A stretch of DNA of 64,000 nucleotides from a virus (IMGVR_UViG_3300031867_000038:1-64000); one strand, 5' to 3'; numbered from the stretch's first letter, positions 10,251 through 59,990 are shown. Numbers and translations: made by a program. Notes: generated by a model from the letters alone, not told the origin.

Positions 10251-10571
10251 ATGATTATTAGTAATTTAGTACAAGGAGCTATAGGTCAAATTAAAGGGCC
10301 TTTAACAAATAAAGAGTCAATTACTTTTAGCACTGGCAATGAAGCAGGGGCAGGGCGGCCGCCTGATTTAAAACTAGGTATTTCTATTGATGAAAAAGAT
10401 CTTATGACTTATGGATGGAGATTTGAAGTTACAATTAATAAAAATATTAGAATTTTAATAGGATCAACTGGTCGATATGAATTTGATGAAAAGATTGCAG
10501 TTGATACAATCTCTTTTCCAGAAGGGGCGCCTGCCAGTGTTATCATTGATTATGTTGTATTGGATATATAA
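10251..10571 (+). CDS. Hypothetical structural-module protein
   Basis: 106 aa; C-terminal half resembles the C-terminus of the 6806-7663 protein (I.I...G..E...I....I.F......I.DY.Y/V). Confidence 0.55.
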   Translation: MIISNLVQGAIGQIKGPLTNKESITFSTGNEAGAGRPPDLKLGISIDEKDLMTYGWRFEVTINKNIRILIGSTGRYEFDEKIAVDTISFPEGAPASVIIDYVVLDI

Positions 10572-10586
10572 GGAGTGTAAAATGCT

Positions 10587-10964
10587 ATGGCGGATCGGAT
10601 AAAAGGATTACGACAAAAAAATAACCAAGGTGTTTTTGATGCTTTGGTTCCTTTTGGCACTGATGGCATTTTCGTAGATATGGTAAGTGGGCTAGACAAT
10701 GAAGAAGAGTTAAAAATTGGTGGGAATCATACTTCTACTATTGTAGAAAATTTAGATGGTTCTACAACTATTACAGAATTATTTAAAAATTTAAATAATG
10801 TAGTAACTTATACTATTGTTACAAATATTATTACTGCTCAAAATGGTTCGACAACAATTACAAGTGTTTTAAAAGAACGAGATACTGAAACTGTTCTACG
10901 AAGTAAGACTATTACTATCCCTGCTGATGCAAGCAGTATAACAATTGGGGAGGTATTAGATTAA
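10587..10964 (+). CDS. Hypothetical structural-module protein
   Basis: 125 aa, RBS AAGGAG. Confidence 0.6.
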   Translation: MADRIKGLRQKNNQGVFDALVPFGTDGIFVDMVSGLDNEEELKIGGNHTSTIVENLDGSTTITELFKNLNNVVTYTIVTNIITAQNGSTTITSVLKERDTETVLRSKTITIPADASSITIGEVLD

Positions 10965-11413
10965 TGAGTGCATGGCCAGAAGCTATATATATAATTCAAA
11001 AATTAAATAATTCTATTGAGAATATTTATAATATAGATGAAGATATTCAAGTTATTGATGATACTAATACTAGAATTGATGATTTAAATATCAAGGTTTT
11101 AACTGGTGGAGAAACTAGTGATGGCACTATTGTTGATATGAGTGTAAATTCTAAATATACTCAATTAATGAATACTTTAAATGTTATTGAAAGTGAAGAT
11201 AGTACCACACCAGGAAGCTTAGCAAATTTGCAAGAACAATTAGACGAATTAAATACATCTGCTGTAGAAGAAGCAAATAATAAGATTAATGAGTTTAATA
11301 AAAATTTAGCAAGCGCAAAAAAAGAAATAATTATTGTTTCAGCGACAGAGCCTCCAACAGATACAGATCAAAAATTTAATAAATATTCAGTGTGGATGAA
11401 GACAGAGGGGTAA
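10964..11413 (+). CDS. Hypothetical coiled-coil protein
   Basis: 149 aa, TAATG-coupled to the previous gene. Confidence 0.6.
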   Translation: MSAWPEAIYIIQKLNNSIENIYNIDEDIQVIDDTNTRIDDLNIKVLTGGETSDGTIVDMSVNSKYTQLMNTLNVIESEDSTTPGSLANLQEQLDELNTSAVEEANNKINEFNKNLASAKKEIIIVSATEPPTDTDQKFNKYSVWMKTEG

Positions 11414-11417
11414 TATT

Positions 11418-11807
11418 ATGAGTAGAATCAATGAATATACTCCTTTAAAATTAGAATTATTAGATAATTTAGAATCAGAATCACAACTTTTCGATTCTTC
11501 AATTGAAGACATTGACCAACGATTAGATAATGCTAATGATGCAATTGATCAATTAGATGAAGATATTCATGAATTAAAAGTTAAATTAGATAATATTTCA
11601 CAAACAGTAAATGATGTTGATTATCAATCTCAAGTGGCGGCAGATACTTTACAAGTAAAACTAAGAAAAAGTATAGTTGCAGCTACGGATGCTACTGATA
11701 ACACCCAGCCAGATTTAAATACAGATGATTATCAAGATTTATTAAATCCAGAATATGAATATTATGGATTTTCTGAAGGATCAGCATGGTTTATTTTAGA
11801 GAGTTAA
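11418..11807 (+). CDS. Hypothetical coiled-coil protein
   Basis: 129 aa acidic with heptad pattern. Confidence 0.6.
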   Translation: MSRINEYTPLKLELLDNLESESQLFDSSIEDIDQRLDNANDAIDQLDEDIHELKVKLDNISQTVNDVDYQSQVAADTLQVKLRKSIVAATDATDNTQPDLNTDDYQDLLNPEYEYYGFSEGSAWFILES

Positions 11808-11820
11808 AAGGAGATATAAT

Positions 11821-13134
11821 ATGTCAAAAATAAAAAGTGTTTCTACTTATGACGGTTCTAGTTGGGGAACGGCAGTTCCTTTAGGAGCTGATGATGTTAA
11901 TGTAGATATAACAAGTGCAACTACTAGTCCTACAGTTTCTTCAAGTACCGCGGCAGAGTTAACAACCGCAACAGATGTTATTGTTGCTTCAGGAGATACT
12001 AATGCTACTGCTTGGACAAAATTTAATAGATTTAGAAACAGAGTTACAAAAACTTTTGGAAATTATATTGGAGGGTCTGTTCAACCCAGTTATAATGCAA
12101 CAGGGAGTAATAGTACATTTTATCCCACTTCTGTTATTAATAATTACATGAAAAATGTAATTGGTCTAACTGGCACTAGTACGCCTACAATTAATGGTAG
12201 CGCACAAACCGTGGCGTCAGCTCTTAGTTCATTAAATGATAATATTATTCGACCAAATCTGCTGGATAACTGGTATTTTGTTGGCGGTGGCTCACAGAGC
12301 GGAAATGGCGTATTCCCAATTAACCAGAGAGGACAGACAAGTTATAGCACGAAGGGGTACGGAATTGACAGGTGGTACAGGAGTACAGTAGCGGCAGGAA
12401 ATATTTTGGTTAATGCCAATGGATTAACTGCAAGCACAAATCTGTTCATCCGTCAGGCAAACGACATACAGCCACAGTTGATCGGTAAAACGCTTACCTT
12501 CTCAGTTTTGTGGAAAAATGCTGGCTTGAGCTCTATTACACATGTTTTTGAAGATGGTTATCGTTTTACAGCAAGTAGCGTAGATTACACAAAGCTTGTA
12601 TATTCTTACGGGTTGACAGTGCTACCGCATGAACTTGTTGGATTGTTTGTAACACCAAGTGATTATATCATAGCAATCAAATTGGAAGTTGGAGATACAT
12701 CGACCCTCGCACATAAGGAAGGTGACATATGGGTGCTGAATGAGCTTCCGGACTATCAGACCGAATTGCAAAAATGCCTCGGCTATTATTACAAAACGAG
12801 TAACACTACCGCCATATTTGGCTCAGGGATTATCACAGGCTCTGCAAAGCGCGTGATCATGAATTTTACTGTACCTGTCCCGTTTGTGAGATCCATTTCA
12901 AGCGTGAGTATGCAGGATTACACTTTGAGATTAGGCACTTCAGGCTACAGCGCTTTAACTCCCAACGAAACATATATACAACCGGAGAGCTTGTCGGTGC
13001 TGTTACCCTCAAAATACAGTACATCAGTCAGAGTAACGGATTTGCATAAAGACGCAACAGGCGATCCGAACAATAGCGCAATTATCGTTGCCGCCAGAGG
13101 CCTAGAAATATCCTGTGAACCAGTTGAGACTTAA
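11821..13134 (+). CDS. Tail fibre / receptor-binding protein (mosaic)
   Basis: 437 aa; NLLDNWYF..INQRGQTSY..YGIDRW and KLEVG..ELQKC..YY motifs of Firmicute phage tail fibres; GC rises from about 12240. Confidence 0.7.
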   Translation: MSKIKSVSTYDGSSWGTAVPLGADDVNVDITSATTSPTVSSSTAAELTTATDVIVASGDTNATAWTKFNRFRNRVTKTFGNYIGGSVQPSYNATGSNSTFYPTSVINNYMKNVIGLTGTSTPTINGSAQTVASALSSLNDNIIRPNLLDNWYFVGGGSQSGNGVFPINQRGQTSYSTKGYGIDRWYRSTVAAGNILVNANGLTASTNLFIRQANDIQPQLIGKTLTFSVLWKNAGLSSITHVFEDGYRFTASSVDYTKLVYSYGLTVLPHELVGLFVTPSDYIIAIKLEVGDTSTLAHKEGDIWVLNELPDYQTELQKCLGYYYKTSNTTAIFGSGIITGSAKRVIMNFTVPVPFVRSISSVSMQDYTLRLGTSGYSALTPNETYIQPESLSVLLPSKYSTSVRVTDLHKDATGDPNNSAIIVAARGLEISCEPVET

Positions 13135-13170
13135 TTAATTAATGATAATAAATTAGGTTAATAAATTTAA

Positions 13171-13199
13171 TTGCTTTTTTATAAAAAATATGATATGAT
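13171..13199 (+). promoter_or_regulatory. sigmaA-type promoter-like element upstream of recombinase remnant
   Basis: TTGCTT-N17-TATGAT; 28 of 29 nt identical to the - strand promoter at 55994-56022. Confidence 0.5.
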
Positions 13200-13425: not shown

Positions 13426-13437
13426 AAGGAGATTAAT

Positions 13438-13890: not shown

Positions 13891-13907
13891 TTAGGAGGTA
13901 AATATAA

Positions 13908-14581: not shown

Positions 14582-15085
14582 TTATTCCCAATTAAATTCA
14601 TCTTTATCAAATTCATTAATATAAGCCTGGCCTATTAAAACGGCATCAGCTAAATCATCATTTTTAGTATTTAGATTAAATAATTCATTAGCTTTAGCTA
14701 TATCGAGCGGTTTTAGCTGCGCCCGCGCAACTCCACGTCCTGTTTTAATTCCCACTTGTTTGCGCCAATGACTAGAACTGCATAACTTCATTTCTTTTGA
14801 ATAATGATTTAATACAATAGCTATAGCTCCGTGAGCAAAAGTTAACTTACGGTAAACATCAATGTTATTTTTAACAAAAGCAGGTTCTGGCTCTTCTGCA
14901 TAAATTATATCTGGTTGATATTCTAACATAAGTAAATTAACTTCATCTGCAATTTTTTCAATCCGAGTAATTACATTTTTACTTGTTGGAGCAATTACTC
15001 CATATGCTATTAATTTTTTATTTTGGAAAATTGCATAACCTGTTGAAGTAGTTGAAATATCTAATGCGAGAATTGTTTGACTCAT
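14582..15085 (-). CDS. ruvC: RuvC-like Holliday junction resolvase
   Basis: ILALDISTTSTG, YAEE and DDLADA RNase H-fold acidic motifs. Confidence 0.8.
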   Translation of the reverse strand: MSQTILALDISTTSTGYAIFQNKKLIAYGVIAPTSKNVITRIEKIADEVNLLMLEYQPDIIYAEEPEPAFVKNNIDVYRKLTFAHGAIAIVLNHYSKEMKLCSSSHWRKQVGIKTGRGVARAQLKPLDIAKANELFNLNTKNDDLADAVLIGQAYINEFDKDEFNWE

Positions 15086-15163: not shown

Positions 15164-15171
15164 GTTTATAT

Positions 15172-16336: not shown

Positions 16337-16714
16337 TTAAACCTCAATAACCGCAGCATCATAACAAAATAAATAGTAACAATAATCTTCTTGACTTTCA
16401 CTGGTAGGATCTCCGCAACGGAGCCAAATTTCCCACGCAGTATTTGCTTTATCTTTGTCAATTGAAACCACCTGACCTCTATTTTCTAAACACTCTAGCA
16501 GTATATTAGCAGCTTCCGCAGGAGATTCAATTACACGAAAAATAGTATAATCTCTTCGTTCATGGCAAAGTAGCATGGCATATGTATCAATACTATCTCT
16601 AAACCATAGACGAATTTCATCAATTCTTTTTTTAATTTGATTTTGACTTAATATTTTCTCTTGACTGCTAAGCTGTTTATTTACTTCATATAAACTATTA
16701 CCTTGAATTTCCAT
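16337..16714 (-). CDS. Hypothetical protein
   Basis: 125 aa, coupled to nrdG stop. Confidence 0.6.
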   Translation of the reverse strand: MEIQGNSLYEVNKQLSSQEKILSQNQIKKRIDEIRLWFRDSIDTYAMLLCHERRDYTIFRVIESPAEAANILLECLENRGQVVSIDKDKANTAWEIWLRCGDPTSESQEDYCYYLFCYDAAVIEV

Positions 16715-17226
16715 TAGCTAATCCTTTCAGCATATTGATTAGGAGAAGCTAAATTTACTCCTAATACTTTATCATAATGTGATTCACAATCAGGAATAAA
16801 TCTCCCATATTTTATAATTATATTATCATAATTTTTAAGTTTTGTCAAGATATCCATTTTAATAAAGACACCCATTGCAGGAGCTTTACTTAATTCTTCT
16901 TTTGTATATCCAGTATAAATTACAATATCATCATGGCAATCATACAAATGACGTAACATATAAATAAAATTTACTACAGTGAGCATACTATCAAATGGTT
17001 CTAATCCTTGCATAACAATAGCTTCAGTAATAGGATTAGCAAGATATCTTTCAATTAATGTTACATCATTTATATCTATATTGGGGGCGGAGGCTAGGTC
17101 TGAATTTTGACAAACCTGGCGCCCGCACTCTTTATCACATTTAAAAGTACAATATGGAAATTCTAGAACCATTGAAGGTTTTTTATAATTTACAAAATCT
17201 TCATCAATTAGTCCTTTGAGTATCAT
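16714..17226 (-). CDS. nrdG: Anaerobic ribonucleotide reductase activase (radical SAM)
   Basis: Cys cluster CTFKCDKECGRQVC, GLEPF, IVIYTGY, KYGRF, LASPNQ; directly follows nrdD. Confidence 0.85.
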   Translation of the reverse strand: MILKGLIDEDFVNYKKPSMVLEFPYCTFKCDKECGRQVCQNSDLASAPNIDINDVTLIERYLANPITEAIVMQGLEPFDSMLTVVNFIYMLRHLYDCHDDIVIYTGYTKEELSKAPAMGVFIKMDILTKLKNYDNIIIKYGRFIPDCESHYDKVLGVNLASPNQYAERIS

Positions 17227-19175
17227 AATGCCTCACTTGTTTGATTGATAGCTTCCCATCTTCTAAGTTTATATTCGCTCTTTCTATTTTTAGACCAGGT
17301 CTGAATTGGAGTATAAAATCCAACTATTCTTGTATATTCAGTTTCAACTGGTTTTCCACATACAGGGCAAGTTCTTCCATAAAATGCATGATTATCTTCA
17401 CAAGCTTGAATCTTGGTATTAAAAGCAAAGTAGGTTACACCTTGATCAGCAATATATTCAACCATTTTTCTAGCTTTTTCATAACTATCAAAAGGAGAAT
17501 CAATGTTAGCGTGAAGAATTGAGCCACCATTGCAATAGCCATCAAATAATGCTTGAACTCTTACTCTTTCTTGCAGAGTTGTTTTAATTCCAAGTGGCAT
17601 AAACTGATTACCATATAGCGGCAGGTCATAAATATCAGCATCAGGATAAAAGAATTTATCTTTACGCATTAGTTTGTCTGCAGCACTTTCACCTGGAATT
17701 TGTTCTGTATTAATTTTATAATCTGCGCCCATATCAATAATGAATTGATCTGCAACTTCCCGCATAGTTTTAAAAATCTTTTCTCCTAGTGCGGCTGCAC
17801 GATCATCATAAAAAGTATTACCAAATTGATCTTGATTAATATAGCCAAAACGTTTCATAGTTTCATATACGCCAATAAAACCAATCGTATTATATAAATG
17901 TTCAAAATCAACTAATCCATATGAGAAATTAGGAAGTAATCCTTTTTCAACATTCCGTTGAATGATATGTCTAACGCAATCTAGAGCTCTGAGTGCGACA
18001 AGGGTGCGCCCGCGCAGATTCTCGATAAACTCTTCTTCATCTTTTGAATCAAGTGCGCAACGAGCTAGATTAATAGTATTAACTTTAACAGAACCAACTT
18101 TAAGAGCTGTTCCACCTATTGAATTGAAATAACCTAAATCTCTAATGTCACTCTTTAATCTACAACAATTTGATAGACTATTGACTGAGTCATCAATAAA
18201 AAGGTTACTATCGCTCCATTGTATATTATGTTCTATAGCCCAATGAGCAAATCCTTCATCTTCAAATTTGCCATTTTTTCTAAGTAATGAAATTGTAGAA
18301 ACTGGGAATGTGAACATATTATCATTACGAGTTGCAGCCATCTCTTCTAAGTACCACTTTTGAAATTCAATGACTTCATCTTCTGCATCAATCATAAAAC
18401 TACCATCAGGAAATTCGCTGCCGCCAAATAATGCTTCATAATAAGGATGGTCAAATACAGAAGTATTAGTAAATGCTGATTGTTGCCCATCACGTACATA
18501 GGGCTGGTTTACTGCGTATATAAATCTCTGGAAATTCTGTCGAGCATATTTTTCTTCACTATGACTCATTCTAATTCCGAGATAATCTGATTCAACATCT
18601 TTGTGCCAGAAATAATACATATATGGAATTAGATTTGGCAGACCAACTGCGCCAGAAGATCTATTACTAGCAAAGCCAATGAACTCTTTAACAAAATCTA
18701 CAAAAGTAGTAAGATGCTGTGCGGGCTGTGGGTTAAAAGTACCGCCAATGAAATACAACCCTTTTTCTGCTAAATCTTTAAGATCATATGCAAAGCAATA
18801 ATGTTTAAAAGTAGAAGTATCTGAGTCATGCATATAAAGCTGCCCAATCCATTCCATTCTCAGCCATTCATTCGCAGCTTTAAATCCAAACCTCTTTTGC
18901 ATCTCATAATAAATTTTATTAAATGCAAGCACTTTTCTATGGGGTTTTGGCATTTCAGATAAAAGTGTTACTATATCTTTTCTGCCTACATTACTATTTC
19001 CATCAATAGAAGAATCTGCTACTGTAGATTCATCAATAAAATTTGAAATAAAATCTGTATAAGAGAGTTGTTCATCTGCAAAACCATTAATTTGCGCGAG
19101 TTCAGTTCCAAACTCTCCTTGTAATTTATTATATTGAGTAGTAAAATTTTTACCTAATCGAACATTTATTTCCAA
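17223..19175 (-). CDS. nrdD: Class III anaerobic ribonucleotide reductase
   Basis: YCFAYD, SGAVG, NCCRL, GSVKVNTINL, C-terminal Zn CEDNH..CPVC and glycyl-radical loop RIVGFY. Confidence 0.92.
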   Translation of the reverse strand: MEINVRLGKNFTTQYNKLQGEFGTELAQINGFADEQLSYTDFISNFIDESTVADSSIDGNSNVGRKDIVTLLSEMPKPHRKVLAFNKIYYEMQKRFGFKAANEWLRMEWIGQLYMHDSDTSTFKHYCFAYDLKDLAEKGLYFIGGTFNPQPAQHLTTFVDFVKEFIGFASNRSSGAVGLPNLIPYMYYFWHKDVESDYLGIRMSHSEEKYARQNFQRFIYAVNQPYVRDGQQSAFTNTSVFDHPYYEALFGGSEFPDGSFMIDAEDEVIEFQKWYLEEMAATRNDNMFTFPVSTISLLRKNGKFEDEGFAHWAIEHNIQWSDSNLFIDDSVNSLSNCCRLKSDIRDLGYFNSIGGTALKVGSVKVNTINLARCALDSKDEEEFIENLRGRTLVALRALDCVRHIIQRNVEKGLLPNFSYGLVDFEHLYNTIGFIGVYETMKRFGYINQDQFGNTFYDDRAAALGEKIFKTMREVADQFIIDMGADYKINTEQIPGESAADKLMRKDKFFYPDADIYDLPLYGNQFMPLGIKTTLQERVRVQALFDGYCNGGSILHANIDSPFDSYEKARKMVEYIADQGVTYFAFNTKIQACEDNHAFYGRTCPVCGKPVETEYTRIVGFYTPIQTWSKNRKSEYKLRRWEAINQTSEAL

Positions 19176-19465: not shown

Positions 19466-20104
19466 TTAATAGTGTAAAGAAATAGTAACATTATCAGTAG
19501 AATGAATAGATTTATGTTGAATGATTTCTATAAGAATAGTTTCATATAACAAAGGAAGAATATCATTTTGTACAATTGCAGAGATTTCATTATGTTCATT
19601 TTCAATTATAAAATGATGAAAATTAATATTCTTACGTGTAAAATCTTCTTTATCAGTTTTAAATCTGCGACAAATTTCTTCGCAGTCAGGTTCTACTTCA
19701 CGGTTAAGCTGTCTCAATAATCTTGTTTTATCTGAGCATGTTATATAAATAGGAATAATTGTGTATTCATCCCAAGGTAAATTTAAAAGTTGTTTTACGC
19801 CTGCAATATTAAATACTCCTATATTAATTTTATCAGATCGAATTGAATTTTTTAGAGTACCATAGCGCCAGCCTCTAAATTCTGCATACTCCAGATAATC
19901 TCCATTATCTAGATATTTTTGAGATTCTTCATCTGAAATAAAATGATAATCAACCCAGTTTTGTTCATACTCACGCGGCGGCCGCGTAGTTGAAGAAATA
20001 ATTTCATGGCAAAGATAAGGAGATTGTTTTACAATCTCCTTTTGAATTGTATCTTTACCAGCTCCCGCCGCCCCAAATAATGCTACAATATATTTTTTAT
20101 TCAT
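19466..20104 (-). CDS. gmk: Guanylate kinase-like
   Basis: GAAGAGKDT P-loop, SSTTRPPRE, DYHFIS, YGT motifs; ATG 20104 overlaps dnaE stop. Confidence 0.85.
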   Translation of the reverse strand: MNKKYIVALFGAAGAGKDTIQKEIVKQSPYLCHEIISSTTRPPREYEQNWVDYHFISDEESQKYLDNGDYLEYAEFRGWRYGTLKNSIRSDKINIGVFNIAGVKQLLNLPWDEYTIIPIYITCSDKTRLLRQLNREVEPDCEEICRRFKTDKEDFTRKNINFHHFIIENEHNEISAIVQNDILPLLYETILIEIIQHKSIHSTDNVTISLHY

Positions 20105-23100
20105 CAGTTTGTCCATACCTTTTTGATGTAATCTCAATATTTTGCCCATGAACATCTGTTATTTTATATAATGTATGTCCAGGTGTATTATTATAACGTT
20201 TTGCTACGAACATATCATCTCTTCTAAACCCTGTTACCATAAGTTTTGTGCCTCGTACAAACCAGCCTTTTTCTTTAACCTTTTTAGTTCCATCAGGCTG
20301 TGGTTCACTAATCTGTCTACCATACAATGCATAGAACTCTTTTGTAAATTTGACATTAACAACTCCTGTTTGAGTTAATAATGAAATACTATGACGACTA
20401 TCATTTTTACTAATTACAGTGCCTGCAATTCTAAACAGATTAAAGATTGGAATTTGTTTATTATTTCGTTTAAAGAAATAATTAACACTTGGTTCAGAAG
20501 ATAATGTATTAAAATCAATAATACCATATTTTTGTTCATTTACATGCGTAAGCTCATGTTCATGATAATAAAAACATAATGCTTCCATTTCCCATGCAGA
20601 GATTGTACCTTGCGCATATTTATTCCAACATTCCATAAACAATTGCTGGTTATATGCATCTAACATTTCTTGCTGATGCTTTTGAAGATAAGTTCGTACT
20701 TTATCAATCTTTTGTTTATAAACTTTATCCCAAACAGTTTGCTTAATAAAATACTGACCATGACTAATTTGTACGATATCTAAAAGATCAGGCACTTCAC
20801 GTTCTAGAAATTCATACATAATTTCATCAATTCTATAATACTCTTCAACCTTATCTTTTTTACAGAATTTATTAAATTTAAAAATTTTCTTTTCAAAATC
20901 TAATTCTGCTGGGAAAAGATTACGTTCAATTAATCCATTAACATTTTGAAGGTTAAGTTTTGATTTTGGTTCACTTGCAATCAAAAGATATTGAATCATT
21001 GTAAAATATCTTGGTTCACATTTAAGTTCTGCGGCAGCCGCCTTATTCAGCGTGTCAAACGCCCCCGCTTTAATCAAACTAATCATCGCTGTTTTTGTTA
21101 ATGGACATTTACGCATAAAATCTTTAAATGAATAATATGGTCTATTTGCAATAATTTTTTCTATAATTGGCGCTCCAACTCCTGTTAAAGCTTTCATACC
21201 AAAAAGAATTTGATTATTTTCTTCATCAGGTTCAAAACCATATGAAGATTTATTTATATCAACGAGTGAAACTTTAATACCTGATGCAATAATTTCACCC
21301 AATGCTTTTGCTAATTTACTATAATCTGTACTAGCTTCTTTCTTTTGAACTCCAATGATATCTCCATCATCATCTTCAAGATATTCATTATCATCATTCT
21401 CCAGACTTCCGCTATTTACAATCAGACATGCTGTATTCCAATAAATTGGATTCCAATTTGTTGCTATATATGCAGTTTGATATCCAATAAATGAATATGC
21501 TAGAGCGTGGATGACTGAAAAACTATAACCCATTTGTGGACCAATTCCAGACTTCCATACATATTGACCTAACGCTGGAGATTTTGCTTGAGTTAAAACT
21601 TTTTCTCTTAAAGCTGGAATTTTATCCATTTGTTTCTTACCAACTACTTTTCGCGCGGCATTTGCTTCGGCCAGCGTAAACCCACAAATATTTTCATCCA
21701 TTAACATTTGCATCAATTGTTCCTGGCTTGGCGGCACTCCATATGATGATTTAAAGTACGGCTCAAGAACCTGGACTTCCCGATCGGTTAAACCTGCGCC
21801 CGCCATTTCATTATACCAAAGTTTAATATTATTCTTAAACCTGATATACTTTTCCATTGGAGTTTCTTCGCCTTGTTCACTTGTCATCAAACGCATTAGT
21901 CCATTTGCGTCCGTAAGCTCTAGAATATTCTGCGGCTTAATCTTCTTTGCGGCTTGCGCCCCCACATCTGAATCAAACTGAAATACATTAAGAATTTTAC
22001 CAGTTTGAATATTTTTCCATACATCATCTCGATCAAGAGGAATAACATTAGGATGAAGGTATTTATTATAAACTTCTCTTAAACTTAAATCAGATTCAAT
22101 CTTATTATTCTCTTGAAGGAATTTAATTGCTTGTGCTAATTTATCTTGAACTTCTGTTACTAGAAAGTCATATTTTACATAACCTAAATATTCTGCATCA
22201 TGCAGATCATATGCTGTGATAATTTCACCTTTCGGCGTTCTCATATAAGATCCAAATTCATACGGATCTTGATCATTCATAATAATTCCAGAAGCATGAG
22301 AGCTACGTTTATTAATAAGATTTTCGATACCCTGCATAATTTCCAAAAGACCTGGATAATTTGAAATCTCATTAATAAATAAATCAACCTTGCGGCGGCC
22401 CTTTTCAGAATTACCCTGGACTACATCTTTTAATGGCCATAGAAATCCTCTTTCTTGTGGAACTAGAGATGATAAATACTGTGCTGTATCACTATCAATT
22501 CCATCTGGGTACTCTTCAGATCTATAACCACGGCAAGCTGTAAGAATTGTTGATTTAGTTGTTTCTGTTCCGAATGTTGCTACCAAAACACAACCAAGAT
22601 TATTACGACTTAATTCATCAATTTCTGGATTAAAATCTTTGCCACGCTCTTCTTTAATTTTACGGATAATTGTAGATTTCTTTGATGGACAAAGATCTAT
22701 ATCAATATCGCCAAGCTCTACCCTATCGCGATTTAAATATCTCCAGAATGGAAGACTCCATTGAATTGGATCAAGTTGTGTAATCCCAAGTAGATAATGA
22801 TTGAGTCCACTACAACTAGACCCACGGCCGGCACCGACCAAACTCCCGCAATCCCACATCATATCAATATAATGTTGAAGAGTTATAGGATATTTAAACA
22901 TATTAGTTTCAAGTTTTTCACTAATTGTTTTCTTAATATCTGCTTCTTCTTCAAGACGGGAAAGATATGTGTTGTTATCTTTATTTAAATTTTTTAATTT
23001 AATTAAACATTCATTAACCCAATATCTTTCATATTTATCATCAGAAATTTTCATACTAGATAAAATAGGATATTGAGTTAATGATTGGTCTTCCCACTTG

Positions 23101-39332: not shown

Positions 39333-39712
39333 ACTTTAAACTCCTTAAAATCTTCTAAATAAAGAATTTTTTTATTTAATGATTCTGCATAAGTAATTTC
39401 TGATTGAGTAGATTGTCCAATATAATTATTCTTATTAATAATAAAAACCATATCTGCCATTTTAATTTTTGCTTTATGCAAGTTATCTAATTCTTGTTTT
39501 TGTATATCAGTAATTTGATCACCTGCATGACCAAAAATCATAGGCATAACAACAATACAACCTTCAAGAGTAAACCATTTACTCCAATATACAAAGTCAT
39601 CTTTAAATTTAGTGCTGCCGCACAAACATACAACAGGATATTTATGAGGAATATGTTTAATTATTGCCTGCGGTTCCATTATATCCATACTCCTTTGCTT
39701 GGTATAATTCAA
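39329..39712 (-). CDS. NDT-fold-like small protein
   Basis: VCLCGST..F, HKAKIKMAD..FIIN..YIGQST..EI.YA. Confidence 0.55.
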   Translation of the reverse strand: MNYTKQRSMDIMEPQAIIKHIPHKYPVVCLCGSTKFKDDFVYWSKWFTLEGCIVVMPMIFGHAGDQITDIQKQELDNLHKAKIKMADMVFIINKNNYIGQSTQSEITYAESLNKKILYLEDFKEFKV

Positions 39713-40702: not shown

Positions 40703-40969
40703 TTATTCCTCAACTTCTGCATCTGGATCGAAAGCACGTCCATCAGCAGTCAGCTTAATAAGCTTAACCTTTTCATGAGTACCATCAGCGAGTTCCATCT
40801 CAGCCTCAACACGTTCGGTATAACCCTTGCGCTGGAAAGAGGTGACAGAACCATTGACTGATTTAACATTCATATCAAGTGCTTCTGCGATATCCTTTGC
40901 AGTGAAATCCTCGCCGTCATGAGCCTTAATGTAATTGAAAATATCCTTTGTAGCCTGCTTCATAGCCAT
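40703..40969 (-). CDS. Small winged-helix DNA-binding protein
   Basis: IFNYIK..FTAKDIAEALDMNVKSVNGSVTSFQRKGY..LIKLTADG; similar to 36466-36825. Confidence 0.75.
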   Translation of the reverse strand: MAMKQATKDIFNYIKAHDGEDFTAKDIAEALDMNVKSVNGSVTSFQRKGYTERVEAEMELADGTHEKVKLIKLTADGRAFDPDAEVEE

Positions 40970-45634: not shown

Positions 45635-46196
45635 TATAAGTAGCCTCCTCGTCTACAAATTCCCATTTTAAAGGCTCTCCAGTAATAGGATGCCTACCAT
45701 TAGTTTTTAATCGGGTTGAATGATTTGCAACTTGTCTAATATGATTTCTGTCTCCTCCTACACACCATTCAACAGCTCTATTTGCATTAGCAAAGATTTC
45801 TCCTGTATTAACACATCTAATTCTTTTACCTTTATTATAATTATGATGTTTTTCACCAGATTGAGCTTCTGATAATTTTTTTCGAGTTTCTAAACTTAAA
45901 GCTCCTTTAGAGCCAGCATCTCGTATATTATAACCATAATTTTCATCTTTGGTTTTATATAAATTAATATAATATTGTTCTCTAATTACAGCTTGTTCTT
46001 CAGTTAATTTATCTTCTAAAATTGAAGCAGTAAAATTTTCCCACCCATATTTTTCAATAGCATTATAAAAATGTCTAGAATTTTTATATCTTTTTCCATT
46101 AATACCAGCTCTACAACTTAAAGATACACAAGTTTGTCCTATATATTTTTTATGATTAATATTATTTTCATACATATAAACTTTATATTCTTTCAT
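45627..46196 (-). CDS. Free-standing GIY-YIG endonuclease between gyrB and gyrA
   Basis: VYMYEN..KYIGQT..EQYYI..YGYN plus NUMOD3-like ETRKKLSEAQ and NUMOD1-like IRCVNTGEIF; RBS overlaps gyrB stop; 3' end overlaps gyrA start. Confidence 0.85.
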   Translation of the reverse strand: MKEYKVYMYENNINHKKYIGQTCVSLSCRAGINGKRYKNSRHFYNAIEKYGWENFTASILEDKLTEEQAVIREQYYINLYKTKDENYGYNIRDAGSKGALSLETRKKLSEAQSGEKHHNYNKGKRIRCVNTGEIFANANRAVEWCVGGDRNHIRQVANHSTRLKTNGRHPITGEPLKWEFVDEEATYND

Positions 46197-50539: not shown

Positions 50540-51727
50540 TTAACGAATATATTGAGAAGCCGCGTATCCAGTTAGTCCATTTCCAGTAATTGCATACCAA
50601 GTTGAACCATCGGCAGCTTCAACTACTCTATTTAAAGTAACTGATGTGCCATATCGTAATTGACCAATCACATCATAATTCATACCTGGGCCTGATCTTA
50701 CATTTAAAACACTTGCGGCAACCTTATGTGTATCAGTTGTCGGTGCGGCAGGTGCTGGATTAAGATCCGCATTAGTATTTTCAGCATATTTACCGTAACC
50801 TAAATTAGTTGCAGTATGTTGTGCATCATTAAGAATAATATCTCCAGGAAGTAAATAACTTGGACCTGTTAGATATTTAGATGCAGTTAATACTTCAAAG
50901 CCTGCTGCGCGAAAGCCAGCTCTCATATTGCCAGTATATGTAGCATTAATGTTTTGTAAAACTGGGATTCCTAATAAATAACCCACAGCTTTGACATTCG
51001 CAATGACGCCTGCGGAGCAATCTGCTTCACAAGGGACTGTGATATTTTTAGGCCAATATCCAACTGAACGGAGTTGATTCCAATAGGTTTGATTCTCTGA
51101 TTGGTCATAACCAACATTATCATTTTTTGCAGCTTGAATACCTAATTCAGCTATATACTCACGAACTTGTCTATTAGGATGACGTAAAATGCATTGCCAT
51201 CCTTGATTATACCAATTGATAATCCACCATTCTTTTCCAGATTGATCTCCTGCGCGGCCGCCCCTGATGCCGCCATGTTCATCCTTACCACAGTTAGAAA
51301 TTTTACCATTATAGTTATTAAAATCTGTGGTGATCTTTGCGGCAGTAATTGGTGTGGCCGCAGACGAGGCAGGCGCCGCCGCATCGTTATAAGTAGTTGA
51401 TCCATTCGTTGATGGAGTAATTATTGTTTGATTCTGTTTCTTTTGAGATCCTAAACGATTTACAAGGCTTTGAATAGCATTATAATCGAAACCAGCATTA
51501 GTAATTCTATTTCGACGGTCTACACCTGTTCCCCACTTATTATCTAGAACCTCTTGTGCTATTTCTTCATTGGTTGCTTGAGCTGGACCGACTCCAAATT
51601 CTTTATTAATTAAACTTTGAATTTCAATCCAACTATATCCAGCAGCTTGTAATTTTTCTTTGCGTGCGTCACCGTTACCCCATCTGCCTTGTAAAACTTC
51701 TTGTACAATTTGATTGGGATTTGCCAT
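50540..51727 (-). CDS. Endolysin: two Cpl-7 (CW_7)-like repeats + Cys/His peptidase-like domain + SH3b
   Basis: IVQEVLQGRWGNGDARKEKL and IAQEVLDNKWGTGVDRRNRI; ADCSA..PGDIILN..HTA; LNVRSGPG..Y..IGQL..GYAAS. Confidence 0.85.
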   Translation of the reverse strand: MANPNQIVQEVLQGRWGNGDARKEKLQAAGYSWIEIQSLINKEFGVGPAQATNEEIAQEVLDNKWGTGVDRRNRITNAGFDYNAIQSLVNRLGSQKKQNQTIITPSTNGSTTYNDAAAPASSAATPITAAKITTDFNNYNGKISNCGKDEHGGIRGGRAGDQSGKEWWIINWYNQGWQCILRHPNRQVREYIAELGIQAAKNDNVGYDQSENQTYWNQLRSVGYWPKNITVPCEADCSAGVIANVKAVGYLLGIPVLQNINATYTGNMRAGFRAAGFEVLTASKYLTGPSYLLPGDIILNDAQHTATNLGYGKYAENTNADLNPAPAAPTTDTHKVAASVLNVRSGPGMNYDVIGQLRYGTSVTLNRVVEAADGSTWYAITGNGLTGYAASQYIR

Positions 51728-52094: not shown

Positions 52095-52538
52095 TTATCC
52101 TACGGCATTTTCGTCATAGTAACAATTAAAATTATTTGCGGCGGCCGCCTCATATGTAATACCGCCTGATGTGTTTTCTTTTGTAGATTTAGCGTAATAA
52201 GCTGCAAGAGCAATTACTTCTCCTACAACAGTTCCAATTAGGGTAACAAGTGGTGTAAAGTCTGGCATAATTCCCATTACAAGAGCTAGATGTAAACTTT
52301 GTACTGTAACCCAAGCTGTAAAAATCTCAATAAAAGTACAAGAAATAAAAAGAAAGATAAGAGCTTTTTTACTCATCGTAAGTGAGTTAGCTGTTGATTT
52401 TGTTAGCTCATTATATTCTTCACGTATCTTTCTTTGCCTTTTGAGATTTTCTTTTTCAATTTCCCATTTTTCTTCATCCTTGGCAACCTGTTTAGCTTTG
52501 TCAAGGTATTCATATTTCTCTTTTCTAAGGAATAGCAT
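52095..52538 (-). CDS. Two-TM membrane protein in lysis cassette
   Basis: Hydrophobic ALIFLFISCTFIEIF and LVTLIGTVVGEVIALAAYY segments. Confidence 0.55.
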   Translation of the reverse strand: MLFLRKEKYEYLDKAKQVAKDEEKWEIEKENLKRQRKIREEYNELTKSTANSLTMSKKALIFLFISCTFIEIFTAWVTVQSLHLALVMGIMPDFTPLVTLIGTVVGEVIALAAYYAKSTKENTSGGITYEAAAANNFNCYYDENAVG

Positions 52539-54868: not shown

Positions 54869-55360
54869 TTACACCTCTACATTCTTATCATTAGATACGT
54901 GTAATATTCCAATATACTTATACGTATCAAGATCAGGGTCTTGAAATTGATGATACATACGACGCATAACAGTGACGGGAACTCGCGCGCGGCCTTCTCT
55001 ATTATTATTTCTTTCAATTGCAGTAGCTAAATCGCAGGTAACTACAACAGGAATAATATTGTAATTATTTGAAAAAATCCGCCGTATTTTATTTCGGCTA
55101 GCTTCATTAAGATGAGTAGCATCTGCGATCACATTAATTACTTCATCCTCTTCAAAAGCAGCTTTAATAGTATTTACGAACTGATTAAACACTTCTTTTT
55201 CTTTTGAAAAATACTCTTCATTTGCGGGGACCAGACTAAATCGCACTTCATCTCTAGATACATACCGCCATTCAGGCCCCCGCATTAATTTGTTTTTAGC
55301 GTACCAAGTTTTCCCGCTACCAGGAATACCAACCATTATCCAGAGAGTTTTATCATGCAT
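54869..55360 (-). CDS. Polynucleotide kinase-like (AAA_33) protein
   Basis: MVGIPGSGKT, SRDEVR, ADATHL...R, RNNNR..R.VP. Confidence 0.85.
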   Translation of the reverse strand: MHDKTLWIMVGIPGSGKTWYAKNKLMRGPEWRYVSRDEVRFSLVPANEEYFSKEKEVFNQFVNTIKAAFEEDEVINVIADATHLNEASRNKIRRIFSNNYNIIPVVVTCDLATAIERNNNREGRARVPVTVMRRMYHQFQDPDLDTYKYIGILHVSNDKNVEV

Positions 55361-56055: not shown

Positions 56056-57309
56056 TTACTTATCTAATAGAGTAATTCCATCAATATCTAGATCAAAGTA
56101 TGGTGCTGATCTAAATTCAGATTCATGAAAATATCCATCAAAAATTACATTAGTATCAGGGGTGAAATTAGGATCAGAATCTACATCTGCCATATATTCA
56201 GTTAGATGCTCTCCATTGACTGTAAAATTATTAACATCAAAAACATGGATAGTATTTGATTCAAGATATTTTCTTGCTTCAATAAGAGCTTCCGCAGTCC
56301 CTTCCGCAGCAACCTTATCATTAATCTCTGTCATTGTAACAGATCCAAGAGTCATATTACCTGTCCAGTCTACATCAATAGGAGTTCCTGTCTGAACAGA
56401 GCTAATAATATATTTGAAATAAGGCGCCCAATCAATGCGAGTAGACACTATAAAAGTATTAGGTGCGGCTGAAATTGTACTACCGTTATAAGATACATTA
56501 GGGATACCTGCGGCTTCACATGCGGATGGCGCCCCCATAGAGTCTGCGTGCTGGCTAATAAGTTTACAGCCATTTTCAATTAGACGATTCGCGCCTTCTT
56601 TTTCCAGAGCTTCATCATACCAAGAATTAGTAAATACAACATCCATAGTTACGTCAGGACAAATATATCTAGCACCAAGGAAGAAGGCAGTATAACCAGA
56701 TTTCACTTCAGCATAAGGATAAGCTCCAATATAACCTATCTTAGCTTCTTCTGGAGTAAACTCTCCATTAGCCATCATTTCATTTAACTTCATACCAGCG
56801 GCGACTCCCGCCATAAACCTACCTTCATAGATAGAAGCAAAAGCATTATGGAAATTTGGAAGTCCGAGAGTATGAGCCTGTGTGCCAGTAGCATGACAGA
56901 ACTGTACATCTGGGGCGGCCTGCGCAGCCTGGATAAGATAATCTTCATGTCCAAAGGAATCAGCAAAGACAATATTGCATCCTTCATCTACAAGATCCAT
57001 AGCTGCTTCATAGCACTCGCCGCCTTCAGGAATACCAACTTTATTAAGATAAGGGACTCCCATTTCTTCGCAAGCTTCTTTTGCAGCCTTCATAAAGTTA
57101 AGATCATATGTAGACTGTTCATCATGGAGATAAATAAAACCTACTTTAACAGGAACAAGGCCATCTGGAATAATCTCTGCTTCTGCGGGCGCAGGTTCAT
57201 TTGATACTTCGGGGCTAGGCTCTGCAGGTACCGCAGGTGTCTGAGTGCAAGCGCAAAGAGTAAACATCATCATACAAATAAGAATAACTGAAAGAATACG
57301 CTTTTTCAT
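56056..57309 (-). CDS. BMP/PnrA-family substrate-binding lipoprotein
   Basis: Lipobox LCAC; KVGFIY, DSFG, HATG, YEGRFMAGVAAG, KIGYIG, SWYD..E, QHAD; AAGGAG RBS before ATG 57309. Confidence 0.9.
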   Translation of the reverse strand: MKKRILSVILICMMMFTLCACTQTPAVPAEPSPEVSNEPAPAEAEIIPDGLVPVKVGFIYLHDEQSTYDLNFMKAAKEACEEMGVPYLNKVGIPEGGECYEAAMDLVDEGCNIVFADSFGHEDYLIQAAQAAPDVQFCHATGTQAHTLGLPNFHNAFASIYEGRFMAGVAAGMKLNEMMANGEFTPEEAKIGYIGAYPYAEVKSGYTAFFLGARYICPDVTMDVVFTNSWYDEALEKEGANRLIENGCKLISQHADSMGAPSACEAAGIPNVSYNGSTISAAPNTFIVSTRIDWAPYFKYIISSVQTGTPIDVDWTGNMTLGSVTMTEINDKVAAEGTAEALIEARKYLESNTIHVFDVNNFTVNGEHLTEYMADVDSDPNFTPDTNVIFDGYFHESEFRSAPYFDLDIDGITLLDK

Positions 57310-57372
57310 AAAAACTCCTTTGATTTTCAAAGTATTATACTATTTATATATGAGAAATACCCATATATAAAT

Positions 57373-57401: not shown

Positions 57402-57407
57402 ATTTAA

Positions 57408-57608: not shown

Positions 57609-57643
57609 ATAATAAATTTAAGTTTTGTCCAACTCTTTTCTTG

Positions 57644-58900
57644 TTATGAATGGAAACGTAAAAGGAAACTATTACTTACTGCCTTAAAAGATTTAGTTCC
57701 GTCAATGCTTCTCAGTACAAACCCCTCCCGCGGCAGCCCATCAATTTTAGATTCACCTTCGGCAAGGAAGAGAAGCTTATCCAGTCGAGATTCTCCCTTC
57801 ATGATATCAAGCATATTAAAAGTGAAGTTCGGCTCAAGGATTGGAACACAAGGAACGTTAAATCCATTCTCTAGCAGATTCTTCATTGCATGGCTATTCC
57901 ATCTACCCTTATCAGAAGTAATAAGATTAAATGCAGCAAAGTCATGTCCAGCAAGTCCATAGTCTCTTTTCTGGACGCCCGCACCATAAGTTTCTCCCTG
58001 GATAGTGACCCAATTAGCATTAGGCATCCGTTCAAGAAGTTCATTCAACACCTTGTACATATCATACTTCTGCGCCATTTCCCAATAAATATTAGTATCA
58101 TAGTAACAAGGCTTATCTACACTATCAAAGCACACGTTACGAGAACAAACATAAAATTCATTCTTGCGGCGGCCACGCTTCATGGTGAAAGTAGTAGAAC
58201 TACCATCAATTTTTTCAGTGATAATCCATTCCCCTTCATCTTCCAGAATCCAAGGCATGTTCTGAACTCTTTCTTCATCGGTCTTTACAACCCACTCTGG
58301 CCAGCTATTCTTTTTGTCTTTCTTCTTACCAAAGAATACAAACATCAACTTTCGGCCCCATGCGCGCTTCATCAGCCAACGCACCCAAGACTTCTTAAAG
58401 ATGTTAGGATGACGCTGTGCCATTTTCTTATACTTATCTACAGAAGGAGCCTTGCGCTGGTTATCTTCCACGTCCGCATAAGTTACACCAAGTTCTTTAG
58501 TAAGGAAACGAGATTCTCTATCTGCCCAGTGAATTACACCTTTATCATCAGCGATACCAACTTCATGTTCATTGGTGTTATGATTATTATTTTCCCAAAT
58601 TTCCCAACCAAAATCTTCTGCGTGCATAAGAAGACCTTGACTTATAACCTTGCACATACGAAGTGTTTTTACCTTATAGTTCCGCTTCTCAAGAAATGCA
58701 AAACATTCTTTATCAGACGGAACTTTGGAGTCAATCTCAAAATAGATCGCGGGATCACCAACGTTAAACTGGCCTTTTTGAACAATTACCCACCAACCAC
58801 CGACACGGGCATGCTCAACACGATCATAATTAGGAATAGGACGAATTTCATCAATCGTTACAACATAAGCAAGCTCCCGAGACCCCTCTTTATTCAACAT
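57644..58900 (-). CDS. ATP-dependent RNA ligase (Rnl2/DRB0094-like)
   Basis: N-terminal OB-like region; KTDEER, TEKIDGSS (motif I), IQGE, FAAF, REGFV, FKAVS. Confidence 0.85.
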   Translation of the reverse strand: MLNKEGSRELAYVVTIDEIRPIPNYDRVEHARVGGWWVIVQKGQFNVGDPAIYFEIDSKVPSDKECFAFLEKRNYKVKTLRMCKVISQGLLMHAEDFGWEIWENNNHNTNEHEVGIADDKGVIHWADRESRFLTKELGVTYADVEDNQRKAPSVDKYKKMAQRHPNIFKKSWVRWLMKRAWGRKLMFVFFGKKKDKKNSWPEWVVKTDEERVQNMPWILEDEGEWIITEKIDGSSTTFTMKRGRRKNEFYVCSRNVCFDSVDKPCYYDTNIYWEMAQKYDMYKVLNELLERMPNANWVTIQGETYGAGVQKRDYGLAGHDFAAFNLITSDKGRWNSHAMKNLLENGFNVPCVPILEPNFTFNMLDIMKGESRLDKLLFLAEGESKIDGLPREGFVLRSIDGTKSFKAVSNSFLLRFHS

Positions 58901-58961
58901 ATCTTATTCCTTCTTTATTATATAATTACTATTATTTAATAAATCTTTTAAACATAAATCA

Positions 58962-59126
58962 TTATAATATGTCTTTATCTATATAACGCTCAAAAAGTAT
59001 CCATAGACTGTTATATTTTCCTGAACCACCAGTCATACAAATAATTTCCCAATCAGGGTGTTCCGCTAGAAATGAATTTACATCACTTTCATAATAAAAC
59101 TGTTTACAGAGACGTTCTTTTTCCAT
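58962..59126 (-). CDS. Small hypothetical protein (54 aa, not in ORF track)
   Basis: AAGGAG RBS + ATG GAA AAA, open to TAA at 58962. Confidence 0.45.
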   Translation of the reverse strand: MEKERLCKQFYYESDVNSFLAEHPDWEIICMTGGSGKYNSLWILFERYIDKDIL

Positions 59127-59141
59127 TTTTATTCTCCTTTT

Positions 59142-59417
59142 TTATAATTTGTTCGTTACATCAAACAATACACAAATACGATCACAGACTTCATCTTTTT
59201 CTTTTTCTGTAATCTTACGCCATTTCCATGCCCAATCAATATAATCAGCAATAGAAGAAAGAGAGCGTTCACAATATTTATAATTCTCATGCTGCTTCAG
59301 TGCTTTATCAATTTTTTGATAAACAGTCATACAAGCTCCTTTAATCAATGCATGAAAGTACATAATTATGAGGCATATAAGATTCTTTATCAGGGAAGAG
59401 AGATTTATATTCATCAA
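59142..59417 (-). CDS. Hypothetical protein
   Basis: True start probably MTVYQK near 59330. Confidence 0.45.
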   Translation of the reverse strand: MMNINLSSLIKNLICLIIMYFHALIKGACMTVYQKIDKALKQHENYKYCERSLSSIADYIDWAWKWRKITEKEKDEVCDRICVLFDVTNKL

Positions 59418-59661
59418 TCATCTTCATCAACTCTTCATGAGGATAAGGAGTCACAGGTGGCACCATGAAATATTTACTAGGATCTGCGTGCCAAATCATA
59501 AGACCAAAGAAATAAGTAGAGTTATCAGGGTCCCATCCATCAATCGCAAAAGCATAATCAGATTCCTGAAACTGATTGAATTTTTCTTCTGAAAGTTCAC
59601 GATATTCTTTGCGCTGAACAATGAAACCATAACCCAATCTGGAACTATAATGAACAGACAT
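59341..59661 (-). CDS. Hypothetical protein
   Basis: 106 aa, GGAG RBS. Confidence 0.55.
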   Translation of the reverse strand: MSVHYSSRLGYGFIVQRKEYRELSEEKFNQFQESDYAFAIDGWDPDNSTYFFGLMIWHADPSKYFMVPPVTPYPHEELMKMIDEYKSLFPDKESYMPHNYVLSCID

Positions 59662-59694
59662 TAATCAATCTCCCCTCCCTTATTTTCTATATAT

Positions 59695-59723
59695 ATTATA
59701 ACAAAAAATTTCTTATTTTTCAA
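59695..59723 (-). promoter_or_regulatory. sigmaA-type promoter
   Basis: TTGAAA-N17-TATAAT with TG extension. Confidence 0.7.
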
Positions 59724-59732
59724 TAAGAGATA

Positions 59733-59990
59733 TTACATCCAAACTTTCTGAATATTATACATTTCTTTATTCCATCTTAATACTCTATCCCAAGTTTGCT
59801 GTGCATAAATATGACAATCTAAAGTAGGATTTATAACATCAATCCAATGCGCGTCAGCTGCTTCCTGCATTTCAGATCTAAAATCTTCCATAAAAATATC
59901 TAGGAGTTGTTCTTCGAGCGGCCGCCGCGTTTTTGCGACAGCTACTACTTCACCATTTTCAACATCGACAAGGCAATAAATTTTTTTCAT
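59733..59990 (-). CDS. Hypothetical protein
   Basis: 85 aa, ATGA-coupled. Confidence 0.55.
   Translation of the reverse strand: MKKIYCLVDVENGEVVAVAKTRRPLEEQLLDIFMEDFRSEMQEAADAHWIDVINPTLDCHIYAQQTWDRVLRWNKEMYNIQKVWM

Follow-up and report, generated by a model that had tools for sequence, protein, structure and literature searches.

The cyanobacterial highly iterated palindromes (HIPs) occur at about 1000-2000 copies per Mb, and the alternative HIP word of Cyanothece PCC 7822 is GCsGC, which is accompanied by GCsGC methylases (Elhai 2015, PMC4390886). The same word, GCSGC (S, G or C; W, A or T), is described here in the virus record IMGVR_UViG_3300031867_000038 (G000; 73,953 bases, 33% GC, about 49% complete according to CheckV), the first 64,000 bases of which (32.7% GC) are the window that was analysed. 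No published description of a GCSGC-type iterated word in phages was found in our literature search. In E. coli, the Dcm/Vsr system reportedly leaves CCWGG over-represented and CTWGG under-represented. The Chi word of B. subtilis is AGCGG, and the GC clusters of yeast mitochondrial DNA are mobile insertions of 20-50 nt which lie mostly outside genes.

Our main null model shuffled synonymous codons within each gene, keeping the proteins and the per-gene codon counts. Under this null, GCSGC was the most enriched 5-mer of the 74-kb record (154 copies against about 64 expected, z about 15-16) and GCWGC the most depleted one (89 against 139, z -9). The lists of enriched 6-, 7- and 8-mers were all headed by GCSGC-containing words and the 4-mer list by GCGG (322 against 196). 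The density of GCSGC is about 2080 per Mb (154 in 73,953 bases), and that of the NotI site GCGGCCGC alone about 176 per Mb. The NotI sites (13 against 1.8, z 12), the GCGSSCGC sites (20 against 2.1, z 18) and the G/C-only runs of at least 8 nt (74 against 24.6, z 14) were in excess as well; runs of at least 7 nt, with lengths of 7-14 nt, numbered 107, against about 21 by geometric expectation. The null is calibrated, as two unrelated AT-rich phages gave run z values near 0: SPbeta (134 kb, 34.6% GC) had 14 runs of at least 8 nt against 14.7 and 37 GCSGC against 47, and the Enterococcus phage VRE9_3 (138 kb, 31.8% GC) had 10 runs against 9.1 and 40 GCSGC against 30. Staphylococcus phage K (L041) proved unsuitable as a neutral control because it is devoid of GCNGC, GATC and GGCC. 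Positions 1-50000 of phage K contain none of these words in any frame, and its terminase has 22 alanines and not a single Ala-Ala pair; restriction avoidance in this phage is strong enough to forbid a dipeptide.

The word resembles the HIP class in several respects, being the same GCsGC, all-G/C, two-fold symmetric, the top 5-mer, present at about 2 copies per kb and located in genes in every frame. It differs in that it occupies a phage genome and not a bacterial chromosome, that no cognate methylase was found, that co-binned bacterial DNA is without the excess, and that it forms arrays in a 3-nt register, with one of the two double-word palindromes missing.

An earlier note, made from this stretch alone, had drawn attention to the NotI-type 8-mer. 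All 12 copies of GCGGCCGC and all seven copies of GCGCCCGC or GCGGGCGC that it listed are present at exactly those positions, and its estimate of more than 100 GCSGC pentamers compares with 135 counted in the window. The mononucleotide expectation is 0.032 for GCGGCCGC (12 seen) and, by arithmetic from the base counts of the window, about 15 for GCSGC. The 19 hits had been assigned to coding DNA in all frames; 18 of them are inside predicted open reading frames (ORFs), that at 19978 is inside a 229-aa ORF (19466-20155), and the hit phases are 8, 3 and 7. The peptides AAA, GRPP, RRPP, VRPQ, CGRQ, RGRT, GGRA, ARAQ, AGAG, PRPR and APAE were all recovered, and the codons CGG, CGC, CCG and GCG are as rare as had been suspected (7-11% of their codon families). 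The words and sites of the window are as follows.

1-64000, word population of the whole window: 135 GCSGC and about 65 G/C-only runs of at least 8 nt, in both gene arms, at 1.3-3.2 words per kb
10353-10363, GGGCGGCCGCC array, NotI site at 10355, reads GRPP in ORF 10251-10571 (plus strand)
14719-14728, GCGCCCGCGC run, GCGSSCGC variant, reads ARAQ
17118-17126, GGCGCCCGC run, variant at 17119, reads CGRQ in the NrdG-like ORF
18006-18015, GCGCCCGCGC run, variant, in nrdD, reads RGRT
19974-19986, CGCGGCGGCCGCG array of 13 nt, NotI site at 19978, in ORF 19466-20155 (minus strand)
21796-21804, GCGCCCGCC run in the polymerase gene, reads MAGAG, MDDFG in distant relatives
23633-23640, GCGCCCGC in the polymerase gene, reads VRAQ, kept in the relatives L001 and L002, IVNKY or similar in distant relatives
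27178-27185, NotI site, reads VRPQ
30391-30403, GCGCGGGCGCGGG run of 13 nt, variant at 30393, reads PRPR
32835-32848, GGGGCGGCCGCCGC array of 14 nt, NotI site at 32838, reads AAAP
37168-37175, NotI site, reads AAAD
40154-40165, GCGCGGCCGCCC array, NotI site at 40156, reads AAAH, the sole such run within a homing-endonuclease ORF
44478-44488, GCGGCCGCCGC array in the topoisomerase A-subunit gene, reads AAAK
49123-49134, GCGGCCGCCGCC array in the GyrB-like gene, reads AAAR
51252-51264, GCGCGGCCGCCCC array in the lysin gene, reads GGRA
52138-52149, GCGGCGGCCGCC array, reads AAAA
55929-55942, CGGGCGGCCGCCGC array of 14 nt, reads RRPP
57185-57192, GCGGGCGC variant in the PnrA-like gene, reads APAE
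59918-59929, GCGGCCGCCGCG array, reads RRPL

The 8-mer palindrome, which the earlier note took for the unit, had to be replaced by the 5-mer GCSGC with a B...V flank preference, which tops the word lists. Upstream of GCGGC, the preference is graded (GGCGGC 4.4-fold, TGCGGC 2.7-fold, CGCGGC 2.3-fold, AGCGGC 0.73-fold). The 3' flank mirrors it, A-GCSGC and GCSGC-T being disfavoured, and the preference is therefore two-fold symmetric, B-GCSGC-V, with a length of 5-7 nt. In 55% of the copies GC recurs one base after GCSGC, which results in 3-nt-register arrays of the form (GCG)n(GCC)mGC. When G000 was taken together with its complete relative G001, GCGGCCGC occurred 32 times against 3.0 expected and GCGGCGGC or GCCGCCGC 55 times against 6.6. 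The other double-word palindrome, GCCGCGGC, was absent (0 against 1.8), and CCGCGG, GCCGGC, GGGCCC and CCGG were not enriched or were depleted. The flank preferences and these unenriched G/C words show that the pattern is sequence-specific reading rather than plain G/C clustering. The third-base pairs in the 96 Ala-Ala-Ala of the two genomes were (G,C) in 19 cases, (G,G) in 18, (C,C) in 15 and (C,G) in none. A hairpin or spaced inverted repeat, GCGG-N(k)-CCGC, was rejected as the unit, its enrichment being limited to k=0 and k=3, i.e. to the 3-nt-register arrays themselves.

A second null model preserves codon pairs, that is, the dicodon preferences of G000 and G001 themselves, and reproduces the GCSGC count by construction. 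It had been chosen beforehand in the earlier note as the one on which the 8-mer should be judged. It yields most of the 8-mer count (NotI 13 against 10.3 in G000, 19 against 11.2 in G001), and the NotI palindrome is thus a by-product of the 5-7-nt word. The excess of the 8-mer as such did not stand, whereas for the word itself this null merely re-describes an abnormal dicodon table, which the control phages do not have. Under it GGCCGCCGC remained high (16 against 5.5) and GCCGCGGC low, and nothing else stood out.

The proposal that the element belongs to DNA and not to the protein or codon level was confirmed by its presence in all frames and in spacers and by its reverse-complement symmetry on the coding strand. 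GCSGC was enriched in frame 0 (86 against 36), frame 1 (29 against 10) and frame 2 (26 against 5). The depletion of GCWGC was limited to frame 0 (67 against 117), where it is read as GCW-GCN and is the synonymous alternative; there was none in frames 1 and 2 or in spacers. Very-short-patch repair is comparable in that the A/T one-off word is depleted and the G/C version enriched, but no Vsr or C5 methylase was found here and the loss of GCWGC is confined to the frame of the synonymous alternative. In spacers, S filled 65% (G000) and 63% (G001) of the GC_GC contexts against 31% from base composition, figures which are not inflated by tRNA genes. The reverse complements of the enriched 6-mers were likewise enriched on the coding strand, which argues against a translational codon-pair effect, as this would not yield such symmetry. 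A general preference for GC-ending codons of Gly, Ala, Arg and Pro was ruled out by the GC content of third codon positions (0.15-0.27).

The word also reaches into the proteins. Ala-Ala-Ala occurs 96 times in G000 and G001 against 16 times in the relative G003 and 15 times in SPbeta and VRE9_3 together, an excess of about 6-fold, and in the polymerase the runs encode VRAQ, MAGAG and KGRRK where relatives have VNKY, MDDFG and KDRKP. The pressure for the word is strong enough to alter protein sequence, i.e. a DNA-level force can rewrite phage proteins. Insertion-type GC clusters were ruled out by a codon alignment in which 10 of 10 polymerase runs were in-register substitutions without any indel. 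The likeness to the yeast mitochondrial GC clusters consists in short G/C islands scattered over a very AT-rich genome; unlike them, the runs of G000 are in-frame substitutions of 5-14 nt.

Both gene arms of G000, and the whole of G001, have an even density of the word (1.3-3.5 per kb), and its positions within genes are uniform. Regular spacing was ruled out (coefficient of variation about 1, Poisson). GCGGC and GCCGC were balanced in every 10-kb bin of G000 and the complete G001, and this absence of strand polarity speaks against the Chi-like signal proposed in the earlier note. Chi words share with GCSGC that they are short, G-rich, over-represented genome-wide and at a higher density in core DNA than in recent acquisitions; they are, however, asymmetric, polar and host-enriched, whereas GCSGC has neither asymmetry nor polarity, and no excess is seen in the bacterial DNA binned with two relatives of G000. 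Along G000, the counts (observed against expected) were distributed as follows.

Eight replication core genes: GCSGC 40 against 9.9
Six homing-endonuclease ORFs: GCSGC 2 against 1.1
GC-richer ORF 61799-63724: GCSGC 4 against 3.6
GC-richer ORF 11821-13134: GCSGC 3 against 1.7

The GC-richer ORFs, which had been noticed before to be free of the palindrome, are indeed without a NotI site, and the word is not in excess there. The lineage-specific genes of G001 are still 2-fold in excess. The word belongs to DNA that has long been resident in the phage. The homing-endonuclease ORFs, five of GIY-YIG and one of LAGLIDADG type, are all on the minus strand, interspersed in the replication module (27464-28204, 34362-35162, 39657-40649, 45627-46196, 46733-47446, 48042-48809). 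The GyrB-like ORF has 427 aa in G000 and 639 aa, contiguous, in G001. An Rfam search of the window gave zero matches and no group I intron at gathering score.

With the PolIII-alpha-type polymerase (1313 aa) as a query, 26 viral contigs were retrieved. By this protein, the closest cultured relatives belong to the SPbeta-group Bacillus phages and to the Enterococcus phages (about 39% identity), and megablast against cultured phages gave zero matches. G000 is an AT-rich gut or rumen phage and a member of a clade of about 130-kb SPbeta-like phages. A Gram-positive host fits the CW_7 and SH3_3 wall-binding modules predicted in its lysin; the homologues of the tail-fibre ORF gave no lead to a host name. 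The word was counted in three complete relatives.

G001, complete, 133.7 kb with terminal repeats, 83% polymerase identity to G000: NotI 19 against 1.4, GCSGC 288 against 132, runs of at least 8 nt 165 against 62
G002, 64% polymerase identity: NotI 1 against 0.5, GCSGC 136 against 82, runs 58 against 49
G003, 58% polymerase identity: NotI 1 against 0.1, GCSGC 101 against 54, runs 46 against 23

In a quick polymerase tree all clade members had 0.5-2.3 words per kb against 0.28 in the outgroup. The density is labile, ranging from 0.55 to 1.88 per kb inside the tight group L073/L075/L078 and reaching 2.3 in the deep branch L080. The GCSGC excess is thus specific to the SPbeta-like clade, graded within it, and absent from SPbeta and VRE9_3.

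Polymerases of the clade also occur on contigs binned into metagenome-assembled genomes (MAGs), mostly labelled 'Bacilli', which allowed phage and co-binned bacterial DNA to be compared. In the MAG G010 (1.4 Mb), seven of the seven NotI sites are on the 139.6-kb phage contig. That contig had GCSGC 238 against 153 and runs 123 against 65, whereas a 160-kb sample of the other contigs had 14 against 15.8 and 5 against 8.3, i.e. 1.7 words per kb on the phage contig and 0.09 in the co-binned bacterial DNA. The MAG G012 (labelled Faecalibacillus) gave GCSGC 227 against 130 and runs 103 against 48 on the phage contig, and 175 against 154 and 53 against 63 on 160 kb of its other contigs. Phage and bacterial contigs share the avoidance of GATC in both MAGs and additionally that of GTAC in G012 and of TCGA in G010, which lends their pairing a measure of support. 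A host-wide mutational or repair regime is unlikely since the bacterial contigs, paired with the phages by binning, have no excess. Whole or partial clade genomes (L072-L086) sit in species-representative MAGs labelled Bacilli, Endomicrobiaceae, Methanobrevibacter, Gastranaerophilales, Prevotella, Lachnospiraceae and Clostridia, and most of these labels cannot be the host. As a compositional signature of the clade, GCSGC could flag contigs mis-binned into bacterial or archaeal species-representative MAGs.

The persistence of the word was followed between G000 and G001 at fourfold sites in identical aligned residues, where synonymous divergence is nearly saturated. Synonymous positions in the motif are better kept in the relative, as the earlier note had anticipated. 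Of the G/C third bases of G000 in runs of at least 8 nt, 57% were the same base and 69% were G/C in G001, whereas 14-16% were the same base outside runs; the odds ratio at conserved GC_GC contexts was 7. At these contexts the probability of S in G001 was 0.70 given S in G000 and 0.25 given W, and the base was the same in 22 of 26. A rough calculation with a two-state model took the residual correlation at ordinary sites (0.09) as its calibration. It gave a correlation at GC_GC contexts of about 0.45 if only S is lost more slowly, by a factor of 6, about 0.18 with a symmetric bias or uniform weak selection and about 0.01 if only gain is accelerated; 0.45 ± 0.12 was observed. For other all-S contexts, 0.35 ± 0.07 was observed against 0.27 (slowed loss), 0.15 (symmetric) and 0.05 (gain only). 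Between genomes that are 92-95% identical, 35% of the run positions differed against 64-70% of other G/C third positions. Polarising the substitutions of G000 against the relatives L001 and L006 left 16 GC_GC sites only, the outgroup G001 being synonymously saturated. We conclude that in this AT-driven genome G/C letters are lost at a much lower rate inside the word than elsewhere.

The methylation-linked palindrome suggested in the earlier note was not supported. In G000 and in the complete G001, G002 and G003, there were zero matches to the C5 methylase (PF00145), Vsr (PF03852), the N4/N6 methylase (PF01555), the Dam-type methylase (PF02086) and the glycosylases of the HhH-GPD (PF00730) and UDG (PF03167) families. 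The same search recovered SPbeta's own C5 methylase, yet SPbeta is without the GCSGC excess. The clade-core genes which are absent from SPbeta and VRE9_3 include a type IIA topoisomerase pair, an RNA ligase, a kinase, a phosphoesterase and an 88-aa winged-helix protein.

Two explanations survive these results, and both require a phage-specific factor that recognises the symmetric GCSGC word. Tentatively, and with somewhat less than even confidence, we prefer to see GCSGC as a selected, distributed recognition word of a phage-specific symmetric reader. A selected word is favoured because of its specific grammar, the slow loss of G/C inside it, its protein cost and the lack of a repair or methylation gene. 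GCSGC would be a distributed site for a phage-specific dimeric DNA-reading factor. Candidates for it are the type IIA topoisomerase of the phage and the small winged-helix proteins encoded at 40703-40969 and 36466-36825, all clade-core and absent from SPbeta and VRE9_3. Weak selection may act on the density of the word ('the more the better'), as has been proposed for Chi- and HIP-type words, and not on single positions. Several observations speak against such a selected word. No reader of the word was found, and Poisson spacing, the absence of polarity and the lack of any tie to gene ends suit a diffuse drive equally well. The strength of the trait shifts quickly among close relatives, as it would under the switching of an accessory or host factor, and no phage gene tracks strong and weak trait convincingly, the gene-content association having returned only the NrdG-like activase, tail proteins and tiny ORFs. 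The two-state model behind the argument from slowed loss is simple and the counts are small (n=57 and n=231), and the pairing of MAG contigs with hosts depends only on binning and the shared avoidance of GATC, GTAC and TCGA. At deeper divergence, word positions are not significantly kept, so that it is the density of the word and not the particular sites that is maintained. The other surviving explanation, which we consider nearly as good though somewhat less probable, is a non-adaptive drive. A phage-specific enzyme would correct T:G or A:C mismatches toward G/C in GC_GC-type contexts, in replication or in heteroduplexes of very frequent phage-phage recombination, and the word would be functionless; the very-short-patch footprint in E. 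coli and Elhai's ratchet for HIP words are the precedents to which it can be likened. It accounts for a word shaped like a restriction-modification or Vsr target whose central W is replaced by S (GCWGC 89 against 139, GCSGC 154 against 64), for arrays growing from existing words, for Poisson spacing with even density and no polarity, and for a trait that is graded and labile over the clade. It also explains most simply why mobile or unique DNA is without the word, since such DNA, here the homing-endonuclease ORFs and GC-richer cassettes, has no homologous heteroduplex partners; the core genes have 40 against 9.9. The window contains a recombination set (RecD-like, RecJ-like and AAA_24) along with the six homing-endonuclease ORFs, and a HIP model of the same kind has been published (PMC4390886). 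Yet none of the Vsr, C5, N4/N6, Dam, HhH-GPD and UDG-family enzymes was found in the four genomes, three of them complete, and SPbeta methylates GCNGC-type sites with its own C5 methylase and shows no excess. Persistence exceeds what a symmetric bias would give (r 0.45 ± 0.12 against 0.18 at GC_GC contexts, 0.35 ± 0.07 against 0.15 at the other all-S contexts), and GCWGC is not depleted in the two frames with a non-synonymous centre, nor in spacers.

The remaining explanations appear weaker. A Chi-like mark of self, by which the word attenuates a helicase-nuclease (AddAB/RecBCD-type of the host or phage-encoded) and word-poor DNA is degraded, is quite improbable. The word is short, G-rich, contains the top 4-mer GCGG (322 against 196) and is evenly spread at about 2 per kb in both orientations; in one MAG the density is 1.7 words per kb on the phage contig and 0.09 in the co-binned bacterial DNA, and the phage has nucleotide salvage genes together with RecD-like and RecJ-like genes. 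However, the word is non-polar with two-fold symmetric flanks, which suggests that its reader is dimeric and not directional. Chi words as known are in excess in the chromosome of the host, which the co-binned contigs (host by binning only) do not reflect. AGCGG is not enriched (57 against 54), and no AddB- or RecC-like protein is among the annotated ORFs of the window. A HIP-type word linked to host methylation, in which all DNA of the cell would be exposed to a GCSGC methylase of the host and to methyl-directed or very-short-patch repair, is very unlikely. The GCsGC word and methylases of Cyanothece PCC 7822 (PMC4390886) would provide a parallel and GCSGC is a known restriction-modification target, but the co-binned bacterial contigs have no excess and in G010 all seven NotI sites are on the phage contig. 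Hardly credible, and largely refuted, is a by-product of translation (codon-pair bias) or of the avoidance of GCWGC restriction. The 8-mer excess is gone under the codon-pair-preserving null, the gain of GCSGC in frame 0 equals the loss of GCWGC, and other palindromes are clearly avoided (AGTACT 3 against 21, ATCGAT 1 against 15). Nevertheless, the excess is found in all frames, in spacers and in both reverse complements, GCWGC is undepleted in frames 1 and 2 and in spacers, and the dicodon pattern is missing from the control phages. Ala-Ala and Ala-Ala-Ala are over-used, whereas phage K, a true GCNGC avoider, has no Ala-Ala in its terminase. Restriction avoidance as a class was rejected because the word is enriched and not under-represented, and GCWGC avoidance as its cause on the grounds of frames, spacers and Ala-Ala-Ala.

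For about 30 years HIPs have lacked a settled explanation in cyanobacteria, where they are inseparable from the cell's own methylases and repair. Phages of 130 kb without a detectable methylase or Vsr, among which the trait varies between close relatives, offer a small, comparative and tractable test between a selected signal and a footprint of biased repair. It is also conceivable, though distinctly unlikely, that the GCSGC arrays, dense on phage DNA and almost missing from the AT-rich bacterial DNA co-binned with a clade relative, are a phage 'self' code, read by a phage-specific symmetric factor or attenuating a helicase-nuclease. If this were true, phage DNA would be spared, or organised, as the DNA of the host is broken down for nucleotides, and the code would be a sequence-based alternative to base modification for distinguishing self from host.

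Other words are avoided in the clade. In G000 these are AGTACT (3 against 21), ATCGAT (1 against 15) and GAATGC (4 against 23) and, among shorter sites, TCGA (76 against 121), GTAC (131 against 174) and CCGG (22 against 44). GATC is avoided strongly in G002 (49 against 253) and G003 (77 against 256) and barely in G000 and G001, which suggests different hosts or defences. The window further contains the following genes.

16714-17226, minus strand, NrdG-like activase
17223-19175, minus strand, anaerobic ribonucleotide reductase NrdD
36891-37604, minus strand, ORF with a CAP (cysteine-rich secretory protein) domain, in the replication module
37601-38875, minus strand, xanthine/uracil permease
38814-39332, minus strand, nucleoside 2-deoxyribosyltransferase-like protein
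54869-55360, minus strand, AAA_33 kinase
56056-57330, minus strand, PnrA-like nucleoside-binding lipoprotein
57644-58900, minus strand, RNA ligase
59987-60550 and 60757-61449, minus strand, two metallophosphoesterases
61799-63724, plus strand, 641-aa ORF, 44% GC, no Pfam match, 581 homologues, some with collagen or CBM_5_12 domains

The permease, the PnrA-like lipoprotein, the deoxyribosyltransferase-like protein, NrdD and the NrdG-like activase serve nucleotide supply. The ligase, kinase and phosphoesterase genes probably constitute an RNA-repair set, and the 641-aa ORF is probably an exchangeable tail-fibre cassette. An identical 641-aa protein is also encoded on a 103.7-kb contig, and a longer copy of the G000 genome may therefore exist.

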